NCBI GenBank assembly: GCA_964016885.1
Contig: OZ024743.1
Span: 2,294,001 to 2,358,000, forward strand
Length of the DNA: 64,000 bases
Reading direction: 5' to 3'
Source of the DNA: Eledone cirrhosa
Lineage: Eukaryota
Below are positions 3,791-57,135 of the stretch, in pieces. The position numbers and the translations under genes are program-made. The stretch's first letter is position 1. Each line of letters begins with the position of its first letter. The notes under the pieces were generated by a model. The model ran no database searches, was not told where the DNA came from, and saw only the letters and a list, made by a program, of their open reading frames with translations.

Positions 3791-3963
3791 TTCACTATTA
3801 ATAATTCTTTCTAATTTAGGTACAAGGCCATCAAATTTGGGGGTAGAGCAAACTTGATTAAATCAACTGACTTATATTTTATTTTACTAATCTGGGAAAG
3901 ATGATAATAATGAACTCATCATTTTGTAAGAGCACACAGCTTTAACCTTTTAGCATTTACATT

Positions 3964-11224: not shown

Positions 11225-13082
11225 GTTATTTACTGTCATTTCATCAGAATAATATTACTGAGGACTTGTTTGGTTTTTATAGAGAATATTAGGAGGGAGG
11301 GGTGAAGTTGTTAGAAGAATAGTTGAGGGAGTGGTTTTTTGATAGCAGTGAGAATTTTTGGTGGCAGTGAGTAATTAGATTCCCATCTGTTGTTTTGACA
11401 TTTTTATAGAATATATTATTGGTTATTTTTCTAAATCTATAGAAGGATTAGAGATAGTAAAGATATGCGTGGTTGGTTTTGTGTTTGCACTTAATTAACA
11501 TTCAGACTTAAATTTATCCTATCACCCACGCATTCACACACAAACATATTTGCACACCTCTACAAAATACATATACTCACATTCACATAGTAACATGTTC
11601 ATACTTACATACATATACACATGCATACATATATATATACACACATGTATTCATGTACATACATACGCGTTCATGTGTATACATTTTCATACTCAACTTA
11701 TCTTTATATACACACGTATAGACACACACATATATACATACATACTCTAGTCTATGTGTATATATATACATATACATATATATTTATATATATATATATA
11801 TATATAGATATATATATATATATATATATAAGCACTTTAATACATGAATACACTTACATCTAACTATACACATCAAACATATATATATATATATATTTAC
11901 TTATTTATATACATTTTCACATATATATACATACTTATGGTCGCTTTTAGACACATTCATTATCGCATTTTTGCACCTATTCTCATCAGCATATCTTTCC
12001 ATTATTAGTGTGGTAATTTGAGGTTATTAATATACATATATATGTTGAGAAGAGATTGTTTTTATATTTTTCTAACTAGATTGAGGTTTATATAGTTGGG
12101 GGGATGTCCCTCTTTTATGTAATATTCGGCTTGTAGTGGGAAAAAAGGGTTTTAGTTCGGTGACGGCAGAATAATGTTCGTTCAATTCTGTTATTCAGCA
12201 ATTTCTTCTTGTGTGTGATTATGTAATAAATCTCAAGATTACACAATTTGCAGAAATTTTGGCTCCTGGAAAAGCTTTGGGTTTTAGCTAATTTCTCCCA
12301 TTTTAGGGTAAACTTTTGATCGCTATCCCTGAGCGTCCAAGCTTTTTCTGCTAAAGTTGTTACATTTCTTTGGCTCTGGTGTTTTATTGAGTAAGAATGC
12401 CTATATAATTGAGATTTAAACGATGTTGCCGTTGATCCCACGTAATACCACTCGTTGCCTCCGGATTTAATGGTACACTTATAAATAATATTTTTTTCCA
12501 GGCAGTTATTGCCGAGGGGGCAGTTGTCAGGATAGGTGCAGTTACAGTTGTGTACGTTGGGTTTTCTCTGGAGTAGTATTGCGGAGGAACTTAGGTGTGG
12601 TTTATTTATCTCTAATCCTTCTATAGATTTAGAAAAATAACCAATAATATATTCTATAAAAATGTCAAAACAACAGATGGGAATCTAATTACTCACTGCC
12701 ACCAAAAATTCTCACTGCTATCAAAAAAACCACTCCCTCAACTATTCTTCTAACAACTTCACCCCTCCCTCCTAATATTCTCTATAAAAACCAAACAGGT
12801 CCTCAGTAATATTATTCTGATGAAATGACAGTAAATAATAACATTGAAATATTGAATGTCTGCATAACTAATACTTTGTAGATAGCAGCTGTTTTCAGGT
12901 TATGTAACTGTTATAGAAACACGTGTCAATAAATTCCTTTCAACTAAACTGTATCCATTCAAATCTTTCTATTTTTCTCCGGATTACTTTTGGAACTACA
13001 ACTGGAACCGTCGAGCAAACTCTACGTGAGCTGTCAATCTACTGTGTGTAATATTTATATTACAACACAACGGAAAATACTG
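11225..13082 (-). mobile_element. 5'-truncated Penelope-like element (GIY-YIG end + 3' region) with an inverted terminal copy
   Basis: 12115-12560 minus encodes CNCTYPDNCPLGNNC..IIYKC..YVGST..CKLC; 11225-11455 is the reverse complement of 12608-12842; ends in (TA)n at 13082. Confidence 0.85.
12115..12560 (-). pseudogene. GIY-YIG endonuclease remnant (Naiad-like PLE)
   Basis: CxCx5C linker, IY..YVG motif and C-terminal CxxC/H residues; paralogous to the C-terminus of 25673-26782. Confidence 0.85.
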
Positions 13083-25377: not shown

Positions 25378-25420
<43 letters not shown>

Positions 25421-25427
<7 letters not shown>

Positions 25428-27206
25428 TAAAATAACAGATTAAAGTTTAAGCAAAGAATCGCTGCTTTCACGCTTAACGGGATCTTCTGAAACTAACAAA
25501 GTCAATCTGTAAACGCAGAAGTGGATATTTCAAAAACCGTTGCAACCGGAGGAAGACAGGAAGACGATACTTTGGTTCGTGGAAACGTTCCCTATGCAAA
25601 TAAGTAATGGTATAAACAAAACATATAATTAGCTACCACATCAAGACGTAAAATATCCACGTATAGACCGTACTATCCGTTAGGGTATAACGTGGGGCTG
25701 TAATACAGGACAGTTTTGTGCAATTTATGTTTACAAGCTGAAATTGTCTTAGATTTTTTGTTTAAGATGTGGTCTGTGGCGGAGAGTATTTCCAGGGCCT
25801 CAGTGGCGCAGAAGTCACATGGTCTTTTATTTCCATTATATGATCTAGCCCTAGCTAAGATCTCCCAGTGTAACTTATATTGGGTGTGGTTGTCTTTTAG
25901 ACTCCAGATATAAGCTGAAAGTGACGTCATATTCCTTCTTAGAGAGTAACGAAAAGAATGGGTATGCATGTAAAGACGCTGCTTGAATCTATTGGCGGTT
26001 AACCCTATGTAGGCCCTACGGGACGTGGGTGTTTCAACCTTACATTTGTAGACAATGTTACTAGAGAGGCATTTCCCAGATAGGGGGCAATCAACCCGAT
26101 TCCTACAATTACAGTTATTACTAACTACAGGGTTGCACGTGTTCCTATGGCTAGGTAGATTAACTAAATTTGAAGCTGTGATGTTATGTGCAAGGTTAGG
26201 AGTCATAGAGTAAGAAATTTTAATAGTATTTCTATTAAAAATTTTACTATATTTATATGTAGAGGGAAAATGCTTCGTAATAAGGGAAAGAAAGATCTTA
26301 GCTAATGGTGTGGCCACCTCCATATTATATGGTGGGTTATACCAACAAATGCGACGGAATCTATTTCTTCTAGGTCTATTTTCGTACTCTGTATATGCTA
26401 CCTTATCGACAAATCCACTCCGAGCAAGAGCTTCATTGTAATAAGTGGAATGGTCGTTGAAAATATGCTCGTTAGTAGATAGACGGGAAAGCCTCAACGA
26501 AACATTTCTTACCAGGTTCTTGGTTATGCTGGCAGGATGGTTGGAATGCTTACTTATGTAATTAAGCGTATCATTCGGCTTTCTATACGGGTAATACAAC
26601 CCATTCGATAAATTGAGGGTAACGTCAAGGTAATTAATGACCGAGATATTGGCCTCAACCTGTATAGAGAGGTTGAAGCCTTTAAAGAAGGCTGTGAGTT
26701 CTTTTCTGAATCTGTCGCAAGCAGGAGGTCCGCACTTAGTCATGGTCAAAAGACCATCGTCACGGTACAAACCACCGCCCACATTGGGGAATTCATCCTT
26801 GATAGAGAAAAGAAGGAAAAGGCCGATAAGATCAGTAACCTACGCAGAATCTGGCGCCCATACTCACGTCGAATGGGGTACTATTGGATTTTTTAATCCA
26901 AATAGAGTCGTCGTAATTAATCACTGACTTACGGGCATTGAGGATGACATCAACTTCGAAATCCTTAACCACTGTGAGTGTTTTAGCGAAATTGATAGCT
27001 CTAAGGAGAAGTGGTAAAGTGATGGAGGAGGAGTAATTGTTGATGTCGAATTGGATAAAACGGCAATGTTCTTTGTTGCATATGCCGTTGAACCAATCAA
27101 TCACCGCGAAAGAATTGTTCCACAGTGCAAGAGGGGCCAAACTTCTAATTTCTGGTATAATTCTATCAAGAATCCTTTTACTAAGTCTACCTACTAAGTC
27201 TACCAA
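25421..27206 (-). mobile_element. Penelope-like element (Naiad-like), left arm, 5'-truncated and frameshifted
   Basis: RT motifs QFDINNY, FDVSMG, GLYRDDG and YLDVTL, then CNCRNRVDCPLSGKC + GIY-YIG (IVYKC..YIGLT); 3' end abuts (TA)n. Confidence 0.92.
25673..26782 (-). CDS. PLE RT C-terminal half + GIY-YIG endonuclease (open segment of a disrupted ORF)
   Basis: 369-aa ORF; the upstream part 26832-27206 is in another frame. Confidence 0.75.
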   Translation of the reverse strand: MGGGLYRDDGLLTMTKCGPPACDRFRKELTAFFKGFNLSIQVEANISVINYLDVTLNLSNGLYYPYRKPNDTLNYISKHSNHPASITKNLVRNVSLRLSRLSTNEHIFNDHSTYYNEALARSGFVDKVAYTEYENRPRRNRFRRICWYNPPYNMEVATPLAKIFLSLITKHFPSTYKYSKIFNRNTIKISYSMTPNLAHNITASNLVNLPSHRNTCNPVVSNNCNCRNRVDCPLSGKCLSSNIVYKCKVETPTSRRAYIGLTANRFKQRLYMHTHSFRYSLRRNMTSLSAYIWSLKDNHTQYKLHWEILARARSYNGNKRPCDFCATEALEILSATDHILNKKSKTISACKHKLHKTVLYYSPTLYPNG

Positions 27207-28662
27207 CCGGTGGTTTGTACCGTGATGATGGTCTTTTGACCATGACTAAGTGCGGACCTCGTGCTTGCGACAGGTTCAGAAAAGAACTCACAGCCTTCTT
27301 TAAAGGCTTCAACCTCTCTATACAGGTTGAGGCCAATCTCTCGGTCGTTAATTACCTCGACATTACCCTCAATTTATCGAATGGGTTGTATTACCCGTAT
27401 AGAAAGCCGAATGATACGCTTAATTACATAAGTAAGCATTCCAACCATCCTGCCAGCATAACCAAGAACCTGGTAAGAAATGTTTCGTTGAAACTTTCCC
27501 GTCCATCTACTAACGAGCATATTTTCAGCGACCATTCCACTTATTACAATGAAGCTCTTGCTCGGAGTGGATTTGTCGATAAGGTAGCATATACAGAGTA
27601 CGTAAATAGACCTAGAAGAAATAGATCCCATCGCATTTGTTGGTATAACCCACCATATATATGGAGGTGGCCACACCATTAGCTAAGATCTTTTTTTCCC
27701 TTATTACGAAGCATTTTCCCCTACACATAAATATAGTAAAATTTTTAATAGAAATACTATTAAAATTTCTTACTCTACGACTCCTAACCTTGCACATAAC
27801 ATCACAGCTTCAAATTTAGCTAAACTACCTAGCCGTAGGAACACGTGCAACCCTGTAGTTAGTATTAACTGTAATTGTAGGAATCGGGTTGATTGCCCCC
27901 TATCCGGGAAATGCCTCTCTAGTAACATTGTCTACAAATGTAAGGTTGAAACACCCACGTCCCGTAGGGCCTACATAGGGTTAACCGCCAATAGATTCAA
28001 GCAGCGTCTTTACATGCATACCCATTCTTTTCGTTACCCTCTAAGAAGGAATATGACGTCACTTTCAGCTTATATCTGGAGTCTAAAAGACAACCACACC
28101 CAATATAAGTTACACTGGGAGATCCTAGCTGGGAGATCCTAGCTAGATCGTATGACGGAAATAAAAGACCATGTGACCTCTGCGCTGCTGAGGCCCAGGA
28201 AATACTCTATGCCACAGACCAACCACATCTTAAACAAAAAATCTAAGACAATTTCAGCTTGTAAACATAAATTGCACAAAACTGTCCTGTATTACAGCCC
28301 CACGTTATACCCTAACGGATAGTACGGTCTATACGTGGATATTTTACGTCTTGATGTGGTAGCTAATTATATGTTTTGTTTATACCATTACTTATTTGCA
28401 TAGGGAACGTTTCCACGAACCAAAGTATCGTCTTCCTGTCTTCCTCCGGTTGCAACGTTTTTTGAAATATCCACTTCTGCGTTTACAGATTGACTTTGTT
28501 AGTTTCAGAAGATCCCGTTAAGCGTGAAAGCAGCGATTCTTTGCTTAAACTTTAATCTGTTATTTTAATAAATATTCGCTCTACGGTTCTTATATATTTG
28601 ATATATATTTATCCTTATCGAGCCCTCTTTGGATTTTAGTCTTCAAATTTATTATTATTACT
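27207..28662 (+). mobile_element. Same PLE, inverted right arm
   Basis: Begins at GGLYRDDG; reverse complement of 25421-26778 with scattered substitutions/indels and ~85 extra 3' bases before (TA)n. Confidence 0.92.
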
Positions 28663-28686
28663 ATATATATATATATACATACATAT

Positions 28687-29132: not shown

Positions 29133-29135
<3 letters not shown>

Positions 29136-32100
29136 GAAGGTATTTTAGCCTACATATTGTCGTTAATATCATGATATTCCCTGCTGTATTAGCGTTAAAT
29201 TTTCCCTGCTGTATTAGCGATAAATTTTCGAGGGTTTCTCTTAGTAGTTTTTTCATGACGTTATTATTGTTAATTTTACGGATGTAGTATTAACTTATTA
29301 ACTTGGATATTTACCATGCGGTATTCTAATCCTATTGTATCTCTCTCAGTTATTTACCATGCGACCCTCAGTTCCTACCCCCCCCTCTCTATGCACTTCT
29401 TTAAGGCTTACTACCCTGTCTTTAAACTAATTCATTCAATCTGAAAATATTGAAGAGATAAGACACTTTCCCATTCTTCTCTGCTAAAATGTATCACTAG
29501 AGCTGATTCCAATTTTTCCAGCCATCCATCTAATCTACGAAGGTATTTTAGCCTACATATTGTCGTTAATATTATGATGTTCCCTGCTGTATTAGCGTTA
29601 AATTTTCCCTGCTGTATTAGCGATAAATTTTCGAGGGTTTCTCTTAGTAGTTTTTTCATGATGTTATTATTGTTAATTTTACTGATGTAGTATTAACTTA
29701 TTAACTTGGATATTTACCATGCGGTATTCTAATCCTATTGTATCTCTCTCAGTTATTTACCATGCGACCCTCAGTTCCTGCCCCCCCCTCTCTATGCACT
29801 TCTTTAAGGCTTACTACCCTGTCTTTAACCTAATTCATTCAATCTGAAAATATTGAAGAGATAAGACACTTTCCCATTCTTCTCTGCTAAAATGTATCAC
29901 TAGAGCTGATTCCAATTTTTCCAGCCATCCATCTAATCTACGAAGGTATTTTAGCCTACATATTGTCGTTAATATTATGATGTTCCCTGCTGTATTAGCG
30001 TTAAATTTTCCCTGCTGTATTAGCGATAAATTTTCGAGGGTTTCTCTTAGTAGTTTTTTCATGACATTATTATTGTTAATTTTACTGATGTAGTATTAAC
30101 TTATTAACTTGGATATTTACCATGCGGTATTCTAATCCTATTGTATCTCTCTCAGTTATTTACCATGCGACCCTCAGTTCCTGCCCCCCCCTCTCTATGC
30201 ACTTCTTTAAGGCTTACTACCCTGTCTTTAACCTAATTCATTCAATCTGAAAATATTGAAGAGATAAGACACTTTCCCATTCTTCTCTGCTAAAATGTAT
30301 CACTAGAGTGATTCCAATTTTTCCAGCCATCCATCTAATCTACGAAGGTATTTTAGCCTACATATTGTCGTTAATATTATGATGTTCCCTGCTGTATTAG
30401 CGTTAAATTTTCCCTGCTGTATTAGCGATAAATTTTCGAGGGTTTCTCTTAGTAGTTTTTTCCATGACGTTATTATTGTTAATTTTACTGATGTAGTATT
30501 AACTTATTAACTTGGATATTTACCATGCGGTATTCTAATCCTATTGTATCTCTCTCAGTTATTTACCATGCGACCCTCAGTTCCTACCCCCCCCCCCCCC
30601 TCTCTATGCACTTCTTTAAGGCTTACTACCCTGTCTTTAGCCTAATTCATTCAATCTGAAAATATTGAAGAGATAAGACACTTTCCCATTCTTCTCTGCT
30701 AAAATGTATCACTAGAGCTGATTCCAATTTTTCCAGCCATCCATCTAATCTACGAAGGTATTTTAGCCTACATATTGTCGTTAATATTATGATGTTCCCT
30801 GCTGTATTAGCGTTAAATTTTCCCTGCTGTATTAGCGATAAATTTTCGAGGGTTTCTCTTAGTAGTTTTTTCATGACGTTATTATTGTTAATTTTACTGA
30901 TGTAGTATTAACTTATTAACTTGGATATTTACCATGCGGTATTCTAATCCTATTGTATCTCTCTCAGTTATTTACCATGCGACCCTCAGTTCCTACCCCC
31001 CCCCTCTCTATGCACTTCTTTAAGGCTTACTACCCTGTCTTTAGCCTAATTCATTCAATCTGAAAATATTGAAGAGATAAGACACTTTCCCATTCTTCTC
31101 TGCTAAAATGTATCACTAGAGCTGATTCCAATTTTTCCAGCCATCCATCTAATCTACGAAGGTATTTTAGCCTACATATTGTCGTTAATATTATGATGTT
31201 CCCTGCTGTATTAGCGTTAAATTTTCCCTGCTGTATTAGCGATAAATTTTCGAGGGTTTCTCTTAGTAGTTTTTTCATGACGTTATTATTGTTAATTTTA
31301 CTGATGTAGTATTAACTTATTAACTTGGATATTTACCATGCGGTATTCTAATCCTATTGTATATCTCTCAGTTATTTACCATGCGACCCTCAGTTCCTAC
31401 CCCCCCCCCTCTCTATGCACTTCTTTAAGGCTTACTACCCTGTCTTTAACCTAATTCATTCAATCTGAAAATATTGAAGAGATAAGACACTTTCCCATTC
31501 TTCTCTGCTAAAATGTATCACTAGAGCTGATTCCAATTTTTCCAGCCATCCATCTAATCTACGAAGGTATTTTAGCCTACATATTGTCGTTAATATTATG
31601 ATGTTCCCTGCTGTATTAGCGTTAAATTTTCCCTGCTGTATTAGCGATAAATTTTCGAGGGTTTCTCTTAGTAGTTTTTTCCATGACGTTATTATTGTTA
31701 ATTTTACTGATGTAGTATTAACTTGGATATTTACCATGCGGTATTCTAATCCTATTGTATCTCTCTCAGTTATTTACCATGCGACCCTCAGTTCCTACCC
31801 CCCCCCCCTCTCTATGCACTTCTTTAAGGCTTACTACCCTGTCTTTAACCTAATTCATTCAATCTGAAAATATTGAAGAGATAAGACACTTTCCCATTCT
31901 TCTCTGCTAAAATGTATCACTAGAGCTGATTCCAATTTTTCCAGCCATCCATCTAATCTACGAAGGTATTTTAGCCTACATATTGTCGTTAATATTATGA
32001 TGTTCCCTGCTGTATTAGCGTTAAATTTTCCCTGCTGTATTAGCGATAAATTTTCGAGGGTTTCTCTTAGTAGTTTTTTCCATGACGTTATTATTGTTAA

Positions 32101-32962
32101 TTTTACTGATGTAGTATTAACTTATTAACTTGGATATTTACCATGCGGTATTCTAATCCTATTGTATCTCTCTCAGTTATTTACCATGCGACCCTCAGTT
32201 CCTACCCCCCCCCTCTCTATGCACTTCTTTAAGGCTTACTACCCTGTCTTTAGCCTAATTCATTCCCTCTGAAAATATTGAAGAGATAAGACACTTTCCC
32301 ATTCTTCTCTGCTAAAATGTATCACTAGAGCTGATTCCAATTTTTCCAGCCATCCATCTAATCTACGAAGGTATTTTAGCCTACATATTGTCGTTAATAT
32401 TATGATGTTCCCTGCTGTATTAGCGTTAAATTTTCCCTGCTGTATTAGCGATAAATTTTCGAGGGTTTCTCTTAGTAGTTTTTTCCATGACGTTATTATT
32501 GTTAATTTTACTGATGTAGTATTAACTTATTAACTTGGATATTTACCATGCGGTATTCTAATCCTATTGTATCTCTCTCAGTTATTTACCATGCGACCCT
32601 CAGTTCCTACCCCCCCTCTCTATGCACTTCTTTAAGGCTTACTACCCTGTCTTTAACCTAATTCATTCAATCTGAAAATATTGAAGAGATAAGACACTTT
32701 CCCATTCTTCTCTGCTAAAATGTATCACTAGAGCTGATTCCAATTTTTCCAGCCATCCATCTAATCTACGAAGGTATTTTAGCCTACATATTGTCGTTAA
32801 TATTATGATGTTCCCTGCTGTATAAGCGTTAAATTTTCCCTGCTGTATTAGCGATAAATTTTCGAGGGTTTCTCTTAGTAGTTTTTTCATGACGTTATTA
32901 TTGTTAATTTTACTGATGTAGTATTAACTTGGATATTTACCATGCGACCCTCAGTTCCTACC
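29133..32962. repeat. ~404-bp tandem array, 9 full units + 1 partial
   Basis: TACGAAGGTATTTTAGCC recurs at 29133, 29536, 29939, 30341, 30751, 31155, 31560, 31959, 32364 and 32767. Confidence 0.97.
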
Positions 32963-35900
32963 TCACAATTTCCCCCCACCCCCACCCCCACACACCATCA
33001 TAGTCTATTCGACCAATCAAACCTAGCATGCCATTTCCACTGCTGCTGCTACTACCTGCCTAACTAACTCTCTCCTCCTCTGGCGCATCCCAATACACCC
33101 TGCCATTACCCCACCACCACTGTTCTTCTAGCCCTCAATTTTCCCACCGTTATGGATGGATGAGCTGGGAATACACGAGCAACTCTGAATCAATAGATGA
33201 AATATGAATCTGCGAGCTACCAAGCACCCACGTGAAGCGCCAACCCAGAGACCCTCCCCTACGAGTGTCGACAAATGCCCAAAACTCCGAGTTGGTACCA
33301 TCAATGTAGGCTCAATGAAAGGAAGAGCAGGAGAAATCGTAGAAATGCTAGAGCGAAAGGAAGTTGATGTATGCTATGTGCAAGAGACTAGATGGAGAGG
33401 AGGGTCTGCTAGAGTCCTTGTAGGAAAAAGCCAGTGCTACAAATTTTTCTGGGTGGGAAATGACGATGGGGTGGGTGGTGTAGGTATACTATTAGCTGAC
33501 AAGTGGGTAGATAAAGTAATCTCAGTGTACAGGGTAAATGCAAGAATCATTAAACTCAGACTAGTCCTGAATAAGACAATTACCACAATAATATCAGCTT
33601 ACGCACCCCAATCGGGGCTGCCAGACGAACTTAAGGATAGGTTTTACGAGGTCCTAATACACACTACTGCTCTAACAGACGACAAGGACTTCCTAATCAT
33701 TGCAGGAGATTTTAACGGACACGTAGGTAAACACTGCGACGGCTTCAATAGAGTACATGGAGGCCATGGAGTTGGCACAAGGAATGAGGAAGGATTCAGA
33801 CTTCTAGAATTCTGCGACGCCAATGACATGTCGATATGTAACACAAACTTTAAAAAACCCGACAACCACCTGATCACCTATAGATCAGGGGAGCACTCTA
33901 GTCAGTTACATTTTATCCTCATCAGAGGACGTGACAGATGGACGGTCGAAAACACAAAAGCCTTCCCTAGTGAGGAATGTACATCCCAACATAGCTTAGT
34001 TGTCAGCGACCTCACGGTCAGAACTAGACGAGCCCTGAAACAGAGGCCAACCTGGAGAAGAAAGATCTGGAAGCTGAAAGTCCCCTCAACCAGTAACAGA
34101 TTTAAAGATATTTTACTCAACGCCTACGACAGTAAAGAAGAACAGATGCAGACATTTAACGTAGAAGAGAACTGGCAGTTCCTAAAAAATAACTTACTAG
34201 AGGCGACGGATGAGGTTTGTGGCTGGAGTAAGACCTCAAGCAGGAGGAGAGTGACTTGGTGGTGGAACAATAAGGTAGATGAAGCAGTCAAGGCCAAGAG
34301 ACAGGCATGGAAAGAATGGAAGAACGGGGGGAGCAGGGTACATTACATAGAGACCAAGAGGGAAGCTAGGCGACAAGTATACTTAGCTAGGAGGGAAGCA
34401 GAGGATAGAAAATTCAAGCATGTTTTACAACGTGAGGACCAGAAACAGGAGGTATTCAAGATTGCGAGGCAGTGTGTCAGAGATAGTTGTGATGTCATTG
34501 GAGAGAAGTGTATCCGGAATGATAAAGGTGAGCTTGCCCTCACAAGTGCTGAGAAGAAAGATGCATGGAAGAGTCATTATGATAGATTACTAAATGAGGA
34601 GAATGCATGGGAAGAAGAGACCCTACCCCACGTAGACCCTATAGAGGGACCAGCAGTACAAGTCAGCGGCAGCGTAGTAAGTAAGGCAATCAGAAATATG
34701 AAAATAGGGAAGGCAACCGGTCCATCGGGTATAGCTGCCGAGATGCTGAAGGCATCTGGGTCTGTAGGTCACACTATAACCACACGTATCGTTAACCAGG
34801 TAATACTAGATGGGGCCATACCAAAAGATTGGTGCAGTAGCATCATTGTCAACTGCTACAAAGGTAAAGGCGATGCACTAGATAGGGGAAACTATAGAGG
34901 TATAAAGTTGATGGACCAGGTCATGAAAGTAACAGAAAGAGTTATAGCACAGCTGATTAGGGACCGGGTGAATATAGACGAGATGCAATTTGGGTTTGTA
35001 CCAGGGAAAGGCACCACTGATGCCCTCTTCCTTGTGAGGCAATTACAGGAAAAGTACCTAGCTAAAAGTAAGCCACTCTACTTGGCATTTGTCGACCTTG
35101 AGAAAACCTTTGACAGAGTTCCACGTGCAGTAATCTGGTGGGCTCTTAGAAAACTAGGAGTAGATGAATGGCTTGTGAAAGCGGTACAAGCCATGTATAG
35201 GGGAGCAGTCAGCAAAGTTAGGATTGGCAATGAGTATAGCGAGGAATTTAGCGTACAGGTTGGGGTCCACCAGGGCTCTGTTCTTAGCCCTCTCCTGTTC
35301 ATCATAGTCCTGCAGGCAATAACGGAGGAGTTTAAGACCGGATGCCCATGGGAACTCCTGTATGCTGATGACCTCGCACTCATAGCTGAATCTATGGTAG
35401 AACTAGAGAATAAATTCCAAACCTGGAAGCAGGGACTAGAGAGAAAGGGCCTCAAAGTCAACATGACAAAGACTAAGGTCCTTATAAGTAGACGAGAAAA
35501 CAGAACCCAGATCCCCTCAGGGAAATGGCCTTGCTCAGTATGTAGGAAAGGTGTAGGTAGGAACTCCATTCTCTGCCCCAAATGCAAACAATGGGTACAC
35601 AAGAGATGTAGCGGGATCTCAGGAAGCTTAATTAAGAATGTAGGATTCACATGCAGCAGCTGTGCTGAAACAGCAAGCAAACAGCCACAGGAAACAAGTA
35701 CCACCAATCTCTGGGAGGGCCCTGTAGAAACAGTAGACAGCTTCTGCTACCTAGGTGACCGAATTAGCAACGGAGGTGGGTGCTCAGAAAGTACAATAAC
35801 TAGGGTAAGAACGGGATGGAAGAAGTTTAGGGAACTACTACCACTGCTAGCTGCAAAAGGCTTCTCCCTCAGAATGAAAGGCAGACTGTATGATGCGTGT

Positions 35901-36623
35901 ATCCGAACAGCGATGTTGCATGGTAGTGAGACCTGGGCGCTGAAGGTGGAAGACTTACGTAGATTAGAGAGAAACGAAGCCTGCATGCTCCGATGGATGT
36001 GTAACAGTAATATACGTGAACGACAAAGCATAAAGGAATTGAGAGAGAGACTGAGCATAAGAGGAATCAAATGCTGCGTGCAGGAGAGGCGGTTACGCTG
36101 GTATGGACATGTGATGCGTATGAAGGATGACAGCTGCATAAAAAGGTGCAGAGCACTAGAAGTTGATGGAAACCGCGGAGTGGGGAGACCCAAGATGACT
36201 TGGGATGAGGTGATAAAAGCCGACCTTACCCAACTACACCTCTCAAAGTCAATGACACACGACCGTGACTTCTGGCGTCACGCAGTAATACAGGGTACCC
36301 GACCTCCCATGGGTACATGCTGAAGCATATAAACAATATGCACCCCCCGCCCCACCGCAAGGTGGTCGTGGAGGTGCCACGGCAAAAAAGCACCCAGCCC
36401 ACACTGTAAAGTGGACGTGTAGGCGCCACGAAAAAGCACCCAGCACTCACTGTAAATGAGGTTGGTGTTAGGAAGGGCATCCAGCTGTAGAAATCAAGCC
36501 AGATCAGTTCCTGTATGAGCAAGGCATGGTCAGCCGACCAGACACTGCCCACAACAGGACAACCCGTCTAACCCATGCTAGCGTGGAAGAACGGACGTAA
36601 AACGGTGATGATGATGATGATGA
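32963..36623 (+). mobile_element. RTE-clade LINE family B with a complete ORF
   Basis: C-rich leader, 1039-aa ORF, ~280-bp 3' UTR ending CCCATGCTAGCGTGGAAGAACGGACGTAAAACG(GAT)n. Confidence 0.95.
33204..36323 (+). CDS. RTE ORF: APE endonuclease + reverse transcriptase + C4HC3 finger
   Basis: [50 protein letters not shown] and RLRWYGHV; no stops. Confidence 0.93.
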   Translation: MNLRATKHPREAPTQRPSPTSVDKCPKLRVGTINVGSMKGRAGEIVEMLERKEVDVCYVQETRWRGGSARVLVGKSQCYKFFWVGNDDGVGGVGILLADKWVDKVISVYRVNARIIKLRLVLNKTITTIISAYAPQSGLPDELKDRFYEVLIHTTALTDDKDFLIIAGDFNGHVGKHCDGFNRVHGGHGVGTRNEEGFRLLEFCDANDMSICNTNFKKPDNHLITYRSGEHSSQLHFILIRGRDRWTVENTKAFPSEECTSQHSLVVSDLTVRTRRALKQRPTWRRKIWKLKVPSTSNRFKDILLNAYDSKEEQMQTFNVEENWQFLKNNLLEATDEVCGWSKTSSRRRVTWWWNNKVDEAVKAKRQAWKEWKNGGSRVHYIETKREARRQVYLARREAEDRKFKHVLQREDQKQEVFKIARQCVRDSCDVIGEKCIRNDKGELALTSAEKKDAWKSHYDRLLNEENAWEEETLPHVDPIEGPAVQVSGSVVSKAIRNMKIGKATGPSGIAAEMLKASGSVGHTITTRIVNQVILDGAIPKDWCSSIIVNCYKGKGDALDRGNYRGIKLMDQVMKVTERVIAQLIRDRVNIDEMQFGFVPGKGTTDALFLVRQLQEKYLAKSKPLYLAFVDLEKTFDRVPRAVIWWALRKLGVDEWLVKAVQAMYRGAVSKVRIGNEYSEEFSVQVGVHQGSVLSPLLFIIVLQAITEEFKTGCPWELLYADDLALIAESMVELENKFQTWKQGLERKGLKVNMTKTKVLISRRENRTQIPSGKWPCSVCRKGVGRNSILCPKCKQWVHKRCSGISGSLIKNVGFTCSSCAETASKQPQETSTTNLWEGPVETVDSFCYLGDRISNGGGCSESTITRVRTGWKKFRELLPLLAAKGFSLRMKGRLYDACIRTAMLHGSETWALKVEDLRRLERNEACMLRWMCNSNIRERQSIKELRERLSIRGIKCCVQERRLRWYGHVMRMKDDSCIKRCRALEVDGNRGVGRPKMTWDEVIKADLTQLHLSKSMTHDRDFWRHAVIQGTRPPMGTC

Positions 36624-36627
36624 CATA

Positions 36628-36677
<50 letters not shown>

Positions 36678-36842
36678 TACATATATATATACATATATAA
36701 ATATATATACATATATATATATATATACATATATAAATATATATACATATATATATATATATACATATATATACATATATATATACATATATATACATAT
36801 ATATATATATATACATATATATACATATATATATATATATAC

Positions 36843-36875
<33 letters not shown>

Positions 36876-36908
36876 CATATATATATACATATATATACAT
36901 ATATATAC

Positions 36909-36943
<35 letters not shown>

Positions 36944-37030
36944 CATATATATATACATATATATATACATATATATATATATACATATATATATATACAT
37001 ATATATACATATATATACATATATATATAC

Positions 37031-37063
<33 letters not shown>

Positions 37064-37064
37064 C

Positions 37065-37099
<35 letters not shown>

Positions 37100-37108
37100 C
37101 ATATATAT

Positions 37109-37227
<119 letters not shown>

Positions 37228-37228
37228 C

Positions 37229-39427
<2,199 letters not shown>

Positions 39428-42127: not shown

Positions 42128-43047
42128 CATCATCATCATCATCATCATCAACGTTTAACGTCCGTGTTCCACGCTTGCATGGGTTTGGACGGGGGTAGTC
42201 CCACTTGAGGCAAGAGTGATTGTCTTGCTCGCATAGGACTGTCTGGCAGGTTTTCTACAGTTGGATGCCCTTCCTAACACCAACCACATTTACAGTGTGG
42301 GTCTGGGAGGTTTTTACCGTGTTGCCTACACGGCCACATTACAGCGTGGACTGTGTGTTTTTTTGTCGTGACACCTACACGATCTCATTTGTTTCGGCCT
42401 GGATGGCGCGGCACCAACATAACTTTACATAGAACGGGGTGGTGTGGATGGGGTGGGGGTGGCGGCGGGAGGGGTGTATTTTGTTAGATATGCCTACTGG
42501 CAAGGCGGGTCTTCTCTGTTACTGAGTACCGCCAAAGGTCACGGTCCAGTGACATTGTCTTGGAGAGGTGTAAGTGTGTGAGGTCGGAGTTTATCAGCTC
42601 ATCCCATGTTTTTCTAGGTCTGCCTATTCCGTGGCTACCGTCTATCTTTATTGCCCTGCACTTTGTAATACAGCTATCGACTTTCATGCGCATCACGTGT
42701 CCATACCAACGCAGCCTTCTCTCGAGTAAACAACATCTGATCCCTCTTATCTCTAATTTTTTCCTTAGTTCGTTTATGCTTTGCCGTTCACGTATATTAC
42801 TGTTACACATCCAGCGGAGCATGCAAGCTTCGTTCCTCTCTAGTCTGCGTATATCCTCTGCACACAATGCCCAGGTCTCACTACCATGCAACATTGCTGT
42901 TCGTATGCAGGCATCGTACAACCTGCCTTTCATTTTTAGGGAGAACCCTTTAGCAGCTAATAGTGGTATAAGCTCTCTGAACTTTTTCCAACCAGTTCTG
43001 ACTCTAGCTACAGTACTTTCAGAGCACCCTCCCCCACTGCTGATTTT
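42128..43047 (-). mobile_element. RTE family C, 5'-truncated copy 2
   Basis: C-terminal ORF ([10 protein letters not shown]...KTRLASRHI), 3' UTR and tail; lacks the ~27-bp segment present near the stop in copies 1 and 3. Confidence 0.95.
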
Positions 43048-43050
43048 TAC

Positions 43051-43099
<49 letters not shown>

Positions 43100-43458
43100 T
43101 ATATACATATATATATACATACATACATATATGTAATAATACATATATATATACATACATATATATATAATAATACATATATATATACATACATATATAT
43201 ATAATAATACATATATATATACATACATATATATATAATAATACATATATATATACATACATATATATATAATAATACATATATATATACATACATATAT
43301 ATATAATAATACATATATATATACATACATATATATATAATACATATATATATACATACATATATATATATAATACATATATATATACATACATATATAT
43401 ATATAATACATATATATATACATACATATATATATATAATACATATATATATAATACA

Positions 43459-43499
<41 letters not shown>

Positions 43500-43550
43500 A
43501 ATACATATATATATACATACATATATATATAATAATACATATATATATAC

Positions 43551-43677
<127 letters not shown>

Positions 43678-43700
43678 CATACATATATATATATATATAT

Positions 43701-46258
43701 ATGTGAATATAGACATAGAATATTCGAAAATATTCTGTATGTTTATAATAAACATTTTGAAGACCTAATCGCTATAGAATAGAATACGTCACGTATTACA
43801 ATTAGATTCTCGATAAAAGCAAGGGAAGTAATCTACGCGTTTCATTCTCGTTAGAAATCATCAGGACTACATATCCAGTGCTTTTATCGAGAATGACACA
43901 GCTAGAGACTTATAGAATACTTAGCTGTGTACAGGAACTGGTTTGAAAGAGCGGTTGCCGGTCCGGCAGAAATTAGAAATTGGAATAAATGCTCTGAAAT
44001 AGCGATATATATGTGAATATAGACATAGAATATTCGAAAATATTCTGTATGTTTATAATAAACATTTTGAAGACCTAATCGCTATAGAATAGAATACGTC
44101 ACGTATTACAATTAGATTCTCGATAAAAGCAAGGGAAGTAATCTACGCGTTTCATTCTCGTTAGAAATCATCAGGACTACATATCCAGTGCTTTTATCGA
44201 GAATGACACAGCTAGAGACTTATAGAATACTTAGCTGTGTACAGGAACTGGTTTGAAAGAGCGGTTGCCGGTCCGGCAGAAATTAGAAATTGGAATAAAT
44301 GCTCTGAAATAGCGATATATATGTGAATATAGACATAGAATATTCGAAAATATTCTGTATGTTTATAATAAACATTTTGAAGACCTAATCGCTATAGAAT
44401 AGAATACGTCACGTATTACAATTAGATTCTCGATAAAAGCAAGGGAAGTAATCTACGCGTTTCATTCTCGTTAGAAATCATCAGGACTATATATCCAGTG
44501 CTTTTATCGAGAATGACACAGCTAGAGACTTATAGAATACTTAGCTGTGTACAGGAACTGGTTTGAAAGAGCGGTTGCCGGTCCGGCAGAAATTAGAAAT
44601 TGGAATAAATGCTCTGAAATAGCGATATATATGTGAATATAGACATAGAATATTCGAAAATATTCTGTATGTTTATAATAAACATTTTGAAGACCTAATC
44701 GCTATAGAATAGAATACGTCACGTATTACAATTAGATTCTCGATAAAAGCAAGGGAAGTAATCTACGCGTTTCATTCTCGTTAGAAATCATCAGGACTAC
44801 ATATCCAGTGCTTTTATCGAGAATGACACAGCTAGAGACTTATAGAATACTTAGCTGTGTACAGGAACTGGTTTGAAAGAGCGGTTGCCGGTCCGGCAGA
44901 AATTAGAAATTGGAATAAATGCTCTGAAATAGCGATATATATGTGAATATAGACATAGAATATTCGAAAATATTCTGTATGTTTATAATAAACATTTTGA
45001 AGACCTAATCGCTATAGAATAGAATACGTCACGTATTACAATTAGATTCTCGATAAAAGCAAGGGAAGTAATCTACGCGTTTCATTCTCGTTAGAAATCA
45101 TCAGGACTACATATCCAGTGCTTTTATCGAGAATGACACAGCTAGAGACTTATAGAATACTTAGCTGTGTACAGGAACTGGTTTGAAAGAGCGGTTGCCG
45201 GTCCGGCAGAAATTAGAAATTGGAATAAATGCTCTGAAATAGCGATATATATGTGAATATAGACATAGAATATTCGAAAATATTCTGTATGTTTATAATA
45301 AACATTTTGAAGACCTAATCGCTATAGAATAGAATACGTCACGTATTACAATTAGATTCTCGATAAAAGCAAGGGAAGTAATCTACGCGTTTCATTCTCG
45401 TTAGAAATCATCAGGACTACATATCCAGTGCTTTTATCGAGAATGACACAGCTAGAGACTTATAGAATACTTAGCTGTGTACAGGAACTGGTTTGAAAGA
45501 GCGGTTGCCGGTCCGGCAGAAATTAGAAATTGGAATAAATGCTCTGAAATAGCGATATATATGTGAATATAGACATAGAATATTCGAAAATATTCTGTAT
45601 GTTTATAATAAACATTTTGAAGACCTAATCGCTATAGAATAGAATACGTCACGTATTACAATTAGATTCTCGATAAAAGCAAGGGAAGTAATCTACGCGT
45701 TTCATTCTCGTTAGAAATCATCAGGACTACATATCCAGTGCTTTTATCGAGAATGACACAGCTAGAGACTTATAGAATACTTAGCTGTGTACAGGAACTG
45801 GTTTGAAAGAGCGGTTGCCGGTCCGGCAGAAATTAGAAATTGGAATAAATGCTCTGAAATAGCGATATATATGTGAATATAGACATAGAATATTCGAAAA
45901 TATTCTGTATGTTTATAATAAACATTTTGAAGACCTAATCGCTATAGAATAGAATACGTCACGTATTACAATTAGTTCTCGATAAAAGCAAGGGAAGTAA
46001 TCTACGCGTTTCATTCTCGTTAGAAATCATCAGGACTACATATCCAGTGCTTTTATCGAGAATGACACAGCTAGAGACTTATAGAATACTTAGCTGTGTA
46101 CAGGAACTGGTTTGAAAGAGCGGTTGCCGGTCCGGCAGAAATTAGAAATTGGAATAAATGCTCTGAAATAGCGATATATATGTGAATATAGACATAGAAT
46201 ATTCGAAAATATTCTGTATGTTTATAATAAACATTTTGAAGACCTAATCGCTATAGAA
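43701..46258 (-). mobile_element. Tandem array of 310-bp hammerhead-containing monomers (retrozyme-like), 8 full + partial
   Basis: ATGTGAATATAGAC recurs at 43701, 44011, 44321, 44631, 44941, 45251, 45561, 45871 and 46180; units nearly identical. Confidence 0.9.
43828..43870 (-). ncRNA. Type I minimal hammerhead ribozyme (repeated every 310 bp)
   Basis: Minus strand GTAGTC CTGATGA T TTCT aacg AGAA T GAAA CGCG TA GATTAC: 6-bp stem I, palindromic ACGCGT stem III, GUA site; U-U at the base of stem II. Confidence 0.85.
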
Positions 46259-46616
46259 TATTCTATGTCTATATTCACATATATATCGCTATTTCAGAGC
46301 ATTTATTCCAATTTCTAATTTCTGCCGGACCGGCAACCGCTCTTTCAAACCAGTTCCTGTACACAGCTAAGTATTCTATAAGTCTCTAGCTGTGTCATTC
46401 TCGATAAAAGCACTGGATATGTAGTCCTGATGATTTCTAACGAGAATGAAACGCGTAGATTACTTCCCTTGCTTTTATCGAGAATCTAATTGTAATACGT
46501 GACGTATTCTATTCTATAGCGATTAGGTCTTCAAAATGTTTATTATAAACATACAGAATATTTTCGAATATTCTATGTCTATATTCACATATATATCGCT
46601 ATTTCAGAGCATTTAT

Positions 46617-46622
<6 letters not shown>
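46259..46622 (+). mobile_element. Inverted ~1.2 monomers of the 310-bp unit
   Basis: Reverse complement of the unit, running through the monomer junction; fold-back at ATAGAATATTCTAT. Confidence 0.92.
46421..46463 (+). ncRNA. Hammerhead ribozyme (inverted copy)
   Basis: GTAGTCCTGATGATTTCTAACGAGAATGAAACGCGTAGATTAC read directly; predicted cleavage after 46457. Confidence 0.85.
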
Positions 46623-46655
<33 letters not shown>

Positions 46656-46792
46656 CATATATATATACATACATATATATATAATAATACATATATATAT
46701 ACATACATATATATATATAATACATATATATATACATACATATATATATATAATACATATATATATATACATACATATATATATATAATACA

Positions 46793-46833
<41 letters not shown>

Positions 46834-47015
46834 AATACATATATATATACATACATATATATATACATACATATATATATATAATACATATATATATACA
46901 TACATATATATATACATACATATATATAATATAATACATATATATATACATACATATATATATATAATACATATATATATACATATATATATATATAATA
47001 ATACATATATATACA

Positions 47016-47096
<81 letters not shown>

Positions 47097-47414
47097 ATAC
47101 ATATATATATATATATATTATATATATATATATATATATTATACATACATACATATATACATACATATATATATACATACATACATACATATATGTAATA
47201 ATACATACATATATACATACATATATATATAATAATACATATATATATACATAATATATATATATAATACATATATATATACATACATATATATATATAA
47301 TACATATATATACATACATATATATATATAATACATATATATATACATACATATATATATATAATACATATATATATATAATACATATATATATAATAAT
47401 ACATATATATATAC

Positions 47415-47447
<33 letters not shown>

Positions 47448-47448
47448 C

Positions 47449-47479
<31 letters not shown>

Positions 47480-47484
47480 CATAC

Positions 47485-47515
<31 letters not shown>

Positions 47516-47520
47516 CATAC

Positions 47521-47649
<129 letters not shown>

Positions 47650-47674
47650 CATACATATATATATATATACATAC

Positions 47675-47705
<31 letters not shown>

Positions 47706-47817
47706 CATACATATATATATATATATACATACATATATATATACATATATATATACATACATATATATATATATACATACATATATATGTACATACATAT
47801 ATATATATATACATACA

Positions 47818-49218
47818 TCAGATATCTTGGACAGGATGAGAATGTCAGATATGATGACCCATAAATAAGGAGAGAACCAGAACTGAATACCTCAGAAGAG
47901 TAAAAAAATATGGTCATCAGAACTGTCAGCATACAACAAATACATTGCCCACAATACCTATGCTGTGCCAATTCTAACGCCAACATTTGGCCTACTGAAC
48001 TGGTCATTGCAAGAACTAAGTGAGATGGATGTTAGAACTCGAAAACTTCTCAGTGTTACTGGGAACTTTAACATCAATGGTGATGTGGATAGGCTATACT
48101 TCTCACGCAAGGAAGGTGGCCGGGGTCTAAAATCAATATTAACAACATATGAGACCCGGATAGTAACACTGAAGCAACACCTTCAACAGATAAAAAAGGT
48201 TGGCGACCATCTTGCTCAGGTTTATGAGCATGAAAAAAGAAATATCATTAGAATAGCGACTGATCTGGAGGAGAGATATGGAATAAAGCCTGATATAAAT
48301 CTCTCACCCAGAGAAATCGGAAGATCCTATTCAATGTTCAAACAAGAAAAAAAAATTGACCAATTTACAGAGAAAGTTGTGCATGGATACTTGAGGCGTA
48401 AAACACAGACCATAGAGGGGATAAACCACTCAAAAAGCCTGGCATGGAGTTCCGACAAGTTTATGACATCACACCTTGAGGGATATCTCTATGCAATACA
48501 GGAACAAGAACTCCCTACCAAATATCTGCTGCACAAAAGAGGAGGGCCAGCAGCTGACAATAAATGTAGGCTATGTAAAACAAAGATCGAGGATGTAAGC
48601 CACATTGTTGCCAGCTGCGAAAGAATGTCATCTCGCTACTACCTCCCCATGAGACACGATGGGATAGCTAGAACTATCTGGAACGCACTTCGGAAAACAA
48701 AATTAACAACAAACGAGGAAGAATATATTGAGACAGATGGCACTAAGGAATACTGGTGGAACCTGAAAATAAAAACTGCCACCAAATTAAAGCACAACCG
48801 GCCTGATATTGTAGTTTGGGACCACACATTGAAAACGTGTTCTGTTGTGGAGATCAGCTGCCCACTTGATGTAAACGTTGTCAGAAAAATACAGGAGAAG
48901 GAGGACATCTACGGACCATTGATGAGGAGCTTACAAATCCAGTATCCAAGATACACCTTTAGCTTCATACCCATCATTATTGGTGCTACGGGTTATATAC
49001 CAACCCGCTTGGACCAAAGTATGACCGAACTTGGATTTGCGGACAAAAAGCGCAGCTCCCTAATTCATAGTCTACAAATGGCTGCGATAGCTGGCACCTT
49101 CAAAATATGCAAAACATTCTTGCGATTCAAGGGATGACAATTTCTTTTCTTTTACAACCTTGCCACCAGGAAGGTGGCTGGTCAAAAAAATATACTCGAA
49201 ATTAAGAGAAAGAGAAAA
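47818..49218 (+). mobile_element. R4/Dong-type RLE non-LTR retrotransposon, 5'-truncated
   Basis: RYLG.., [21 protein letters not shown] knuckle CRLC..SHIVASC, RHD and RPDIVV..EISCP; TA tracts on both sides. Confidence 0.88.
47965..49137 (+). CDS. RT thumb + CCHC + restriction-like (PD-D/E) endonuclease, partial
   Basis: 390-aa open frame; upstream RT codons are frameshifted. Confidence 0.75.
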
Positions 49219-54876: not shown

Positions 54877-54945
<69 letters not shown>

Positions 54946-54946
54946 C

Positions 54947-54977
<31 letters not shown>

Positions 54978-55082
54978 CATATATATACATATATATACAT
55001 ATATATACATATATATATACATATATATACATATATATATATATACATACATATATATACATATATATACATATATATATAC

Positions 55083-55115
<33 letters not shown>

Positions 55116-55140
55116 CATATATATACATATATATATATAC

Positions 55141-55181
<41 letters not shown>

Positions 55182-55198
55182 TATACATATATATATAC

Positions 55199-55253
<55 letters not shown>

Positions 55254-55284
55254 CATATATATACATATATATATATATATATAC

Positions 55285-55327
<43 letters not shown>

Positions 55328-55546
55328 TATACATATACATATATACATATATATACATATACATATATACATATATATACATATATATACATATATATAT
55401 ATATATACATATATATACATATATATACATATATATATATATACATATATATATACATATATATACATATATATATATACATATATATATACATATATAT
55501 ATACATATATATACACATATATATATACATATATATACATATATAT

Positions 55547-57131
55547 CATCATCATCATCATCATCATCATCAACGTTTAACGTCCGTGTTCCACGCTTGC
55601 ATGGGTTTGGACGGGGGTAGTCCCACTTGAGGCAAGAGTGATTGTCTTGCTCGCATAGGACTGTCTGGCAGGTTTTCTACAGTTGGATGCCCTTCCTAAC
55701 ACCAACCACATTTACAGTGTGGGTCTGGGAGGTTTTTACCGTGTTGCCTACACGGCCACATTACAGCGTGGACTGTGTGTTTTTTGTCGTGACACCTACA
55801 CGATCTCATTCGTTTCGGCCTCGATGGCGCGGCACCAACATAACTTTACATAGAACGGGGTGGTGTGGATGGGGTGGGGGTGGTGGTGGTGGGACGGGGT
55901 GTATTTTGTTAGAGATGCCTACTGGCTGGAGTAGGTTTTACTATATATTTAGGTAAGGCGGGTCTTCTCTGTTACTGAGTACCGCCAAAGGTCTCGGTCC
56001 AGTGACATTGTCTTGGAGAGGTGTAAGTGTGTGATGTCGGAGTTTATCAGCTCGTCCCAGGTTTTTCTAGGTCTGCCTATTCCGTGACTACCGTCTATCT
56101 TTATTGCCCTGCACTTTGTTATACAGCTATCGACTTTCATGCTCATCACGTGTCCATACCAACGTAGCCTTCTCTCGAGTAAACAACATCTGATCCCTCT
56201 TATCTCTAATTTTTTCCTTAGTTCGTTTATGCTTTGCCGTTCACGTATATTACTGTTACACATCCAGCGGAGCATGCAAGCTTCGTTCCTCTCTAGTCTG
56301 CGTATATCCTCTGCACACAATGCCCAGGTCTCACTGCCATGCAGCATTGCTGTTCGTATGCAGGCATCGTACAACCTGCCTTTCATTTTTAGTGAGAACC
56401 CTTTAGCAGCTAATAGTGGTATAAGCTCTCTGAACTTTTTCCAACCAGTTCTGACTCTAGCTACAGTACTTTCAGAGCACCCTCCCCCACTGCTGATTTT
56501 ATCGCCCAGGTAACGGAAGCTGTCCACTATTTCTATAGAACCCTCTGCGCAATTGAAAGAGCTAGTATTTTGTGGGCACTTGCTGCTACTTATTGCACCA
56601 GAGCACCGGCCACATGTAAAATCTATGTTCTTAGTTAGCTTACCTGTGATCCCACTACATCTTTTATGCACCCATACTTTGCATTTAGGACATAAAATGG
56701 AGTTTCTACCTACGCCTTTCCTACACACCGAGCACGACCATTTCCCAGAAGGGACCGCCGCCTTGTTTTCTTTCCTACAAACTAGTACTTTGGTCTTAGC
56801 CAGGTTAATTTTAAGTCCTTTTGACTCTAGGCCGTGCTTCCATGTTTGGAATTTCTTCTCTAGCTCGGCCATTGATTCCGCTATGAGTGTCAGGTCGTCT
56901 GCGTATAGGAGTTCCCATGGGCAGCCTGTCTTGAACTCCTCTGTTATAGCCTGAAGGGCAATAATAAATAGTAGTGGGCTGAGAACAGAGCCCTGATGGA
57001 CGCCAACTTTTACGCTAAACTCTTCACTATATTCGTTGTTAATTCTAACCTTGCTGACTGTTTCTTTATACATGGCTTGTATAGCCCTCACAAGCCATTC
57101 GTCAACGCCTAGTTTTCTACGAGCCCACCAG

Positions 57132-57135
<4 letters not shown>
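55547..57135 (-). mobile_element. RTE family C, 5'-truncated copy 3
   Basis: RT from IWWA.. to KTRLT* (55949), 3' UTR and tail; near-identical to copy 1. Confidence 0.95.

Follow-up and report, generated by a model that had tools for sequence, protein, structure and literature searches.

The window analysed here is a stretch of 64,000 nucleotides from the genome of Eledone cirrhosa (G000:C4:2294001-2358000, in a 3.0-Gb assembly). It contains a young insertion of a 310-bp type I hammerhead retrozyme, whose two arms of tandem monomers stand head-to-head in a TA-rich microsatellite tract. The outer ends of the two arms fall at two different sites of the monomer, A and B, and this pairing recurs throughout the family. 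We propose that the reverse transcriptase (RT)-endonuclease of a Penelope-like element (PLE) of the Hydra clade cut the TA tract and primed both 3' ends on one RNA, and that the two cDNAs were then joined; we give this reading a probability of about 0.65. Coordinates are those of the window, and position 1 of the monomer is the first base past the predicted cleavage site. The locus comprises the following features.

43051..43694, unstranded: left TA-rich microsatellite tract (target)
43695..46260, minus strand: main retrozyme arm, 8.28 monomers of 310 bp; its sense 3' end is site A (position 139) and its inner end is position 53
43695..43702, minus strand: AU patch at monomer positions 132-139, which blends into the tract and forms the site A end
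46256..46260, unstranded: head-to-head junction with the 5-nt microhomology GAATA, within an incidental palindrome (46253-46266)
46256..46622, plus strand: inverted arm, 1.18 monomers, starting at position 109; its sense 3' end is site B (position 165)
46421..46463, plus strand: predicted type I hammerhead, with helix I GTAGTC/GATTAC, core CTGATGA...GAAA, a 4-bp helix II and a palindromic ACGCGT helix III
46556..46573, plus strand: hairpin GAATATT-TTCG-AATATTC, directly 5' of site A, kept with changed sequence in sister families
46588..46622, plus strand: 35-nt tail that separates site A from site B and occurs at one outer end only
46623..47815, unstranded: right TA-rich microsatellite tract (target)

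The main arm is an array with a period of 310 bp and 8.3 copies that are 99% alike, with two single-monomer differences within 2567 nt. The inverted arm, of 367 bp, is 100% identical to five main-arm copies. Positions 139 and 165 mark the outer ends, and 53 and 109 the inner ones. None of the four is close to position 1, which bears out the claim of the first-pass annotation that the array ends avoid the ribozyme cleavage site. Its description of the left end also holds, as the monomer's ATATATAT blends into the TA tract at position 139, and so do the outward direction of both sense 3' ends into TA tracts and an inverted arm of about 1.2 monomers past about 46258. The strand switch had been placed at a palindrome. 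This 14-bp palindrome, ATAGAATATTCTAT, is real; it is an incidental by-product of the 5-nt overlap, which joins two distinct monomer positions, and not a mirror fold-back. The left and right tracts share exact blocks of up to 89 nt in direct orientation, which indicates a single interrupted complex microsatellite, and the flanks of the locus are different elements on the two sides.

All nine hammerhead cores of the locus are complete (9/9, by motif scan and inspection). Cleavage is predicted after 46457 in the plus-strand copy, and eight further copies lie on the minus strand, so that the sense strand of the long arm is the minus strand and that of the short arm the plus strand. The predicted fold has a z-score of -4.3, and a T.T pair takes the place of G-C at 10.1-11.1. 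Rfam gave no hammerhead match for the monomer at gathering or relaxed thresholds, and the assignment therefore rests on the motif, the fold and the type I description in PMC4209133, which also describes a short palindromic helix III for metazoan type I hammerheads. The element has the other marks of a retrozyme. The tandem monomer of 310 bp has no open reading frame (ORF), long terminal repeat (LTR), primer-binding site or polypurine tract, and the ORF list of the window holds no monomer-derived ORF of 120 aa. Its arrays are dispersed and multicopy, with 4225 exact core matches for one variant and 1013 B-end junctions.

Loci were found via exact sequence patterns across the assembly. The set of 71 comprises the window locus, 10 loci that hold the first 100 of the 4225 matches to an exact 32-nt ribozyme pattern, 40 consecutive loci selected by the B-end pattern (1013 matches) and 20 that were selected by the A-end pattern (1196 matches, some of which are internal variants) and did not already figure among the others. 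The two-armed layout, which the first-pass annotation had described at this locus and attributed to priming from both sides of a TA break, recurs in 64 of the 71 loci. Each of these pairs an A end with a B end (61/61 resolved two-armed loci, and 64/64 once three loci at the edges of the retrieved sequence were extended), and no A/A or B/B locus is found among the 64. Nine of the first ten loci on C1, which were not end-selected, run minus-left/plus-right and are A+B, and the tenth is single-armed. Six further loci met incidentally follow the same pairing; in one of them the A end is at 114. The outer ends of the 61 resolved loci range over 118-139 (site A) and 157-172 (site B), and haplotype variants that halt the exact match early account for most values such as 118-126 and 157. 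The expectation that the ends would be circular permutations enriched at the AU patch is thus contradicted, for there are two fixed sites, A (about 130-139, the AU patch) and B (about 165), some 35 nt apart and used one per arm. The exact B165+TA junction occurs 1013 times in the genome, and 17 of 36 A130 loci pair with a B165 end (hand comparison, first 121 Mb of C1), from which we estimate a family of about 2,000 loci.

This recurrence bears on whether the inversion is a chimeric fold-back long read or another assembly artefact, for which the chance is negligible. Among the short-read matches listed, there is no contig that spans the junction (531 pieces lie outside that listing), and a joint of opposite strands that appeared in such contigs is just normal monomer continuity. 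However, a fold-back read would mirror the flank and the end, and here the outer ends differ (139 and 165), the flanks are different elements, and the same pattern recurs in 64 loci with strict A+B pairing. Two independent insertions in one TA tract, or satellite amplification with a later inversion, can likewise be considered. TA tracts are insertion hot spots in this genome, and arms of 28-47 monomers carry recurring mosaic variants typical of unequal exchange (L134/L135 and L139, which with L042 have arms of about 46-47 monomers). Independent insertions predict random orientation, A/A and B/B loci, mixed haplotypes and target DNA between the arms; instead, the arms are always head-to-head, 64/64 are A+B and 51/56 share a haplotype. 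Ordinary satellites are a poor match too, as the family has fixed ends and two orientations, and mosaic variants occur in long arms only. These origins are refuted and carry almost no weight; amplification stands as a secondary process by which the arms of 28-47 monomers probably expanded later.

The inner ends behave differently from the outer ones. In 58 simple junctions, with 116 inner ends, they are spread uniformly over the monomer (chi-square p = 0.19), and 2/116 lie within 5 nt of the cleavage site. Junction overlaps were scored with locus-specific monomers and two complex loci were excluded. Of 60 junctions, 44 are blunt or overlapping, with a mean overlap of 2.2 nt compared with 0.76 nt when ends are joined at random (none of 20,000 resamples reached it), and the other 16 carry insertions of 1-23 nt, several of them copied from nearby monomer sequence. 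This pattern resembles what microhomology-mediated end joining of two 3' ends would produce. Most arms are longer than one monomer (98/114), and the longer arm is A in 30 and B in 31 of 61 loci, a symmetry that no fold-back or copy-of-first-arm model fits.

The first-pass annotation had left open a second priming event or a template switch, and it is the second priming that stands. That a single priming event led on to self-priming, fold-back or a switch to nascent cDNA could have been suspected from the palindromic junction of the window locus, from the near-mirror inner ends (within 10 nt) of 4/58 loci, or from the extra switched pieces in L012, L021 and L029. Self-priming on an antisense template is also the published explanation for head-to-head inversions of Penelope (PMC3846280). 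However, a copy cannot exceed the first arm, and a completed fold-back gives identical outer ends, which are seen in 0/64 loci; of 43 variant sites in the overlap, 41 have no mirror counterpart, and the PLE described below shows sense-direction splicing in both arms. This explanation is largely refuted by the A+B rule together with the symmetry in arm length, which leave it highly improbable, and the A+B rule argues against the published self-priming idea for this 310-bp family. Taken together, the A+B rule, the scattered joins, the common variant and the arm-length symmetry are strong evidence that the inversion arose neither from a chimeric read or a fold-back nor from a pair of independent insertions. 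Support is strong for double priming at two fixed sites on one template.

The window also holds a PLE for which the same geometry had been claimed, and its two arms confirm it.

25420..27193, minus strand: 5'-truncated left arm of a Hydra-like PLE, ending at the short site
27208..28664, plus strand: 5'-truncated right arm of the Hydra-like PLE, ending about 90 nt further (tail), with a 13-nt duplicated stretch at the junction

The 3' ends of both PLE arms face TA tracts. The arms are 96.8% identical and differ in the same way at 15 sites from the majority among 10 other copies, none of which has 5 of these changes. Both lack the same GT..AG segment of about 730 bp in the 3' untranslated region (breakpoints 25588-25603 and 28392-28407), which fits one spliced sense RNA template and subsequent divergence; copies L078 and L081 retain the segment, so that spliced and unspliced copies coexist. 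Pfam gave no match for the window fragments. The family copy L081 has a 709-aa ORF with RWR37, DKT115, YRDD346, CNCRNRVDC564 and YIG598, and this short ORF, with predicted RT and C-terminal GIY-YIG domains and RWK-like, DKT and CxCX5C motifs, places it by motif content in the Hydra clade as defined in PMC8557442. A motif scan of 25420-28664 found no CTGANGA..GAAA core, the canonical hammerhead of a PLE pseudo-LTR (pLTR), and only a CAGAAGA..GAAA look-alike.

The rule extends to other elements, among them further autonomous PLEs with RWK-like, DKT and CxCX5C motifs. PLE family F5, which holds a hammerhead core (window 12817), follows A+B in 6/8 two-armed loci, with two unresolved, and has a tail of about 113 nt; family F3 follows it in 3/3 loci, with a tail of 137 nt. 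A sister retrozyme family of about 320 nt shares the segment around A and B, including the hairpin 5' of A with changed sequence, and is A+B in 12/14 two-armed loci, with two unresolved (loci chosen mostly for matches on both strands). Further sister families (L044:8095-8620 and L100) have altered hammerhead cores (TTGATAAG, TTGTTGAA) and are still A+B, in short arrays. A fragment of F5, the second Hydra-like PLE family, lies at window 12115-12849; this family has an ORF of 785 aa and numerous copies that are 99% identical, from which we judge it probably active. The similar hammerhead of L127 and L129 was rejected, being part of another, nested element. That element (L127:1600-2700, L129:1900-2400) is two-armed, lies nested in an F3 locus, and has the same T.T closing of helix II with a palindromic ACTAGT helix III.

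Each of the 64 two-armed retrozyme loci combines a 30-40 nt tail at one end with an inverted arm, as expected of a PLE-mobilised element, and the outer ends adjoin TA-type repeats, as do the (TA)n targets of Hydra-clade PLEs. The A+B rule and the TA target, common to the PLE families, support the machinery of PLE type that the first-pass annotation had suggested, and we regard PLE machinery as likely. Another retroelement, for example one of the abundant RTE-type long interspersed elements (LINEs) beside the TA tracts of the window, might have supplied the enzyme through L1-like twin priming. RTE-like ORFs with RT and apurinic/apyrimidinic endonuclease domains do occur in the window, and no PLE partner was identified. 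Against this, neither end carries a poly(A) or simple 3' repeat, and L1 twin priming reportedly combines a fixed start with an internal one that varies. Three PLE families here share the two-site tail rule and the TA target with the retrozyme, and both features match the published anatomy of PLEs (PMC8557442); a LINE enzyme is accordingly very improbable.

The two start sites differ in how they meet the target. Of 34 A ends in B-selected loci, 10 retain the AU patch in full (139), another 14 end at 130, and the remaining 10 were placed at 118-128. An A end at 130 would fit in-phase pairing of a TA primer with positions 130-139, C131 being the one mismatch. B ends overlap with the tract by only about 1-2 nt, and priming via the AU patch, as first proposed, therefore holds for the A end and is not a general rule. 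At L036 and L052, and at G000:C1:105760988, 165008668 and 169700719, C131T is present in every monomer and lengthens the patch, possibly as a target-derived base taken up by the element.

Both arms of a locus appear to come from one template. The arm consensus is identical in 51/56 loci in which both arms have at least 150 nt, compared with 11.8% of cross-locus pairs, and where both arms cover the full monomer they have the same haplotype in 45/48 loci, across 20 haplotypes. Haplotypes are nearly all fixed across every monomer of both arms. In L133, three substitutions occur in 14/14 full monomers of both arms, and among 37 genome-wide matches to 158G this is the sole locus with that haplotype; its source array could be missing from the assembly. 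Not all variants that seemed private are so, since 210A is found at 327 places. Within arms there are 76 differences in 176,473 nt. The family is thus very young, and with such homogeneous source arrays common haplotypes are expected under a circle or a multimer alike. The earlier proposal of a circular or multimeric template is supported as worded. As the usual route, rolling circle on a monomer is likely rather than demonstrated, with odds somewhat better than even. Templates are read as mostly monomers and some multimers, which is the least certain step.

In the proposed mechanism, a Hydra-clade PLE RT-endonuclease, probably a dimer, would cut both strands of the TA tract and bind a platform around A and B that is conserved among the sister retrozymes. 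One target end would start at A, where in-phase pairing between the TA primer and the AUAUAUAU patch would help, and the other at B, where 1-2 nt would pair. Both cDNAs would pass the monomer junction several times, usually on a circular monomer, and their 3' ends would be joined to each other by microhomology-type end joining, supplying both second strands. Some arms may expand later like ordinary satellites. A wider claim can be put forward tentatively, at slightly less than even odds: PLE integration may normally be paired, with an RT-endonuclease dimer working on a single RNA and assigning one of its two start sites to each target end. For retrozymes both subunits would roll round one 310-nt ribozyme circle, and the insertion would be the record of twin rolling-circle reverse transcription, its cDNAs joined to complete the duplex. 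If true, it would account in a single step for the PLE tail, the head-to-head inversion and the synthesis of the second strand.

Several observations weigh against the proposed mechanism or its circular template. Seven of the 71 loci are single-armed, one of them adjoining an assembly gap. In L029, the haplotype changes inside one arm. In L038 and L065, a variant common to both arms occurs in one monomer only, the first pass, in register when counted from the outer ends (chance expectation 0.003). This register places both starts in the same monomer of the same molecule, and since a monomer circle cannot yield it, these two loci favour a multimeric template. In vitro, unprocessed RNA was the main substrate of the Anolis Poseidon element PAc, and ribozyme mutants still inserted (PMC11167929). 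PLE tails here are 90, 113 and 137 nt, compared with 35 nt in the retrozyme. A large target-site duplication was not established in the window tracts, and TA tracts hide such duplications. In the RNA runs compared, none of them host RNA, at most 6% of the words were present.

The partner element also belongs on this side. No autonomous PLE with the A-B platform of the retrozyme was found, in a search of four families and with two motif-plus-ORF-start patterns. Matches to these patterns were mostly sister retrozymes among those listed (100 of 136 for the first pattern), and six candidate loci held no platform-bearing PLE. Upstream regions of the four PLE families aligned to the retrozyme no better than shuffles (p 0.07-0.6); this comparison covered those four families, and at least five more PLE-like fragments lie outside it. 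With its different tail and no common motif, the window PLE is probably not the partner of the retrozyme.

The L038 and L065 pattern is one ground for a reading in which double priming at A and B takes place and the usual template is an uncleaved linear multimer, or a multimeric circle, from a young homogeneous array, with no rolling circle. It would agree with the dispensability of ribozyme cleavage in vitro (PMC11167929), with the poor cleavage of hammerheads with a short palindromic helix III as monomers (PMC4209133), and with source arrays so homogeneous that common haplotypes are expected either way. However, only 2/43 variant sites are shared over 52,104 nt of in-register overlap, the 20 haplotypes that are fixed in nearly every monomer need repeated passage via one monomer, and gene conversion could account for L038. 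We consider a usual multimeric template unlikely, and keep twin priming most often on a circular monomer as the preferred reading.

Twin priming itself is familiar from L1, where, as reported by Ostertag and Kazazian in 2001, it is said to account for a minority of outcomes, the second start varying and the segments not overlapping. The retrozyme resembles this in that both target ends are extended on one RNA and inverted segments are joined with microhomology. In contrast to L1, it is the main outcome here, neither start varies, and the same sequence recurs many times in both arms. Twin priming is also cited in 10.1101/2024.12.14.628481.

For metazoan non-LTR retrozymes, it was proposed that circular RNA is reverse-transcribed to tandem cDNA, with PLEs named as candidates (Cervera and de la Pena 2020, PMC7229834). 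The present family is like those elements in its tandem monomer (170-400 nt there), one type I hammerhead per unit, low GC content, lack of an ORF and dispersal; unlike in the main text of that paper, it has a two-armed layout, fixed start sites and a TA target. A preprint on retrozymes as non-autonomous PLE derivatives (bioRxiv 10.64898/2026.07.22.740005) likewise links them to PLE pLTRs, by distribution and phylogeny. It differs in invoking local tandem amplification by unequal crossover and calls the mobilisation mechanism unresolved, and the part covered contains no head-to-head layout.

Endonuclease-containing Hydra-clade PLEs have an inverted 5'-truncated copy, a 30-40 bp tail that is often one-ended, and (TA)n targets (Craig et al. 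2021, PMC8557442), and inverted arms with a one-sided tail of this size are also known from PMC3846280. In PMC8557442 the inversion is treated qualitatively and ascribed to endonuclease resolution of an intermediate, whereas here a strict one-arm-each rule applies, the element is non-coding and tails are 35-137 nt by family. PAc in vitro (Frangieh et al. 2024, PMC11167929) also cleaves and extends both strands of an AT-rich target, and it has two internal start sites that bound a 30-40 nt tail downstream of the hammerhead, and a predicted dimer. Unlike here, no start-site difference between strands was seen with PAc, and the portion of that paper covered does not propose paired two-site use on one RNA, a circular template or cDNA-cDNA joining.

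We found no two-armed retrozyme insertions, and no strict one-site-per-arm use on one template, in the literature covered; subscription papers (including Arkhipova 2006 on PLE tails) and supplements lie outside it and may hold part of this. The retrozyme class, PLE inversion, the one-sided tail and the two start sites are already known, and what is clear and countable here is the insertion signature. The origin of the inverted structures and one-sided tails of PLEs, and the way in which animal retrozymes reach new loci, are treated as open questions in PMC8557442, PMC3846280 and bioRxiv 10.64898/2026.07.22.740005. This young high-copy family gives a countable rule, of one arm per start site, one template and scattered microhomology joins, and it ties retrozymes to PLE machinery by insertion signature and not by co-occurrence. 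The A+B rule predicts a result that can be checked in the existing in vitro PLE assay. If the proposed mechanism is right, a small circular RNA writes tandem arrays into the genome, seeding new satellites and long palindromes.

Monomer sequence also appears outside this assembly. Runs X4, X5 and X10, compared with window 44150-44459 and 46208-46330, come from three organisms and each gave one 340-nt monomer contig, at depths of 365, 6.7 and 34. The monomer depth in organism A is several hundred thousand, and raw reads labelled organism B have none. Cross-contamination is the simplest reading of the low-depth contigs in other organisms, which may also reflect horizontal spread.

Other elements of the window lie around the retrozyme. 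A 403-bp tandem array at 29133-32930 (9.4 copies, 98% alike) begins at a TA tract and has no CTGANGA..GAAA core on either strand and no inverted arm. RTE-like LINE copies are found at 3914-6523, 33201-36323, 37671-39231, 42484-43047 and 55949-57133, several of them cut off at TA tracts. Segments 36625-38847 and 54901-57135 are local duplicates, 96.9% identical. Directly to the right of the target tract, 47887-49137 holds a 416-aa ORF with a zf-RVT match and a PD..E-like stretch, which is likely a truncated non-LTR element with a restriction-like endonuclease.

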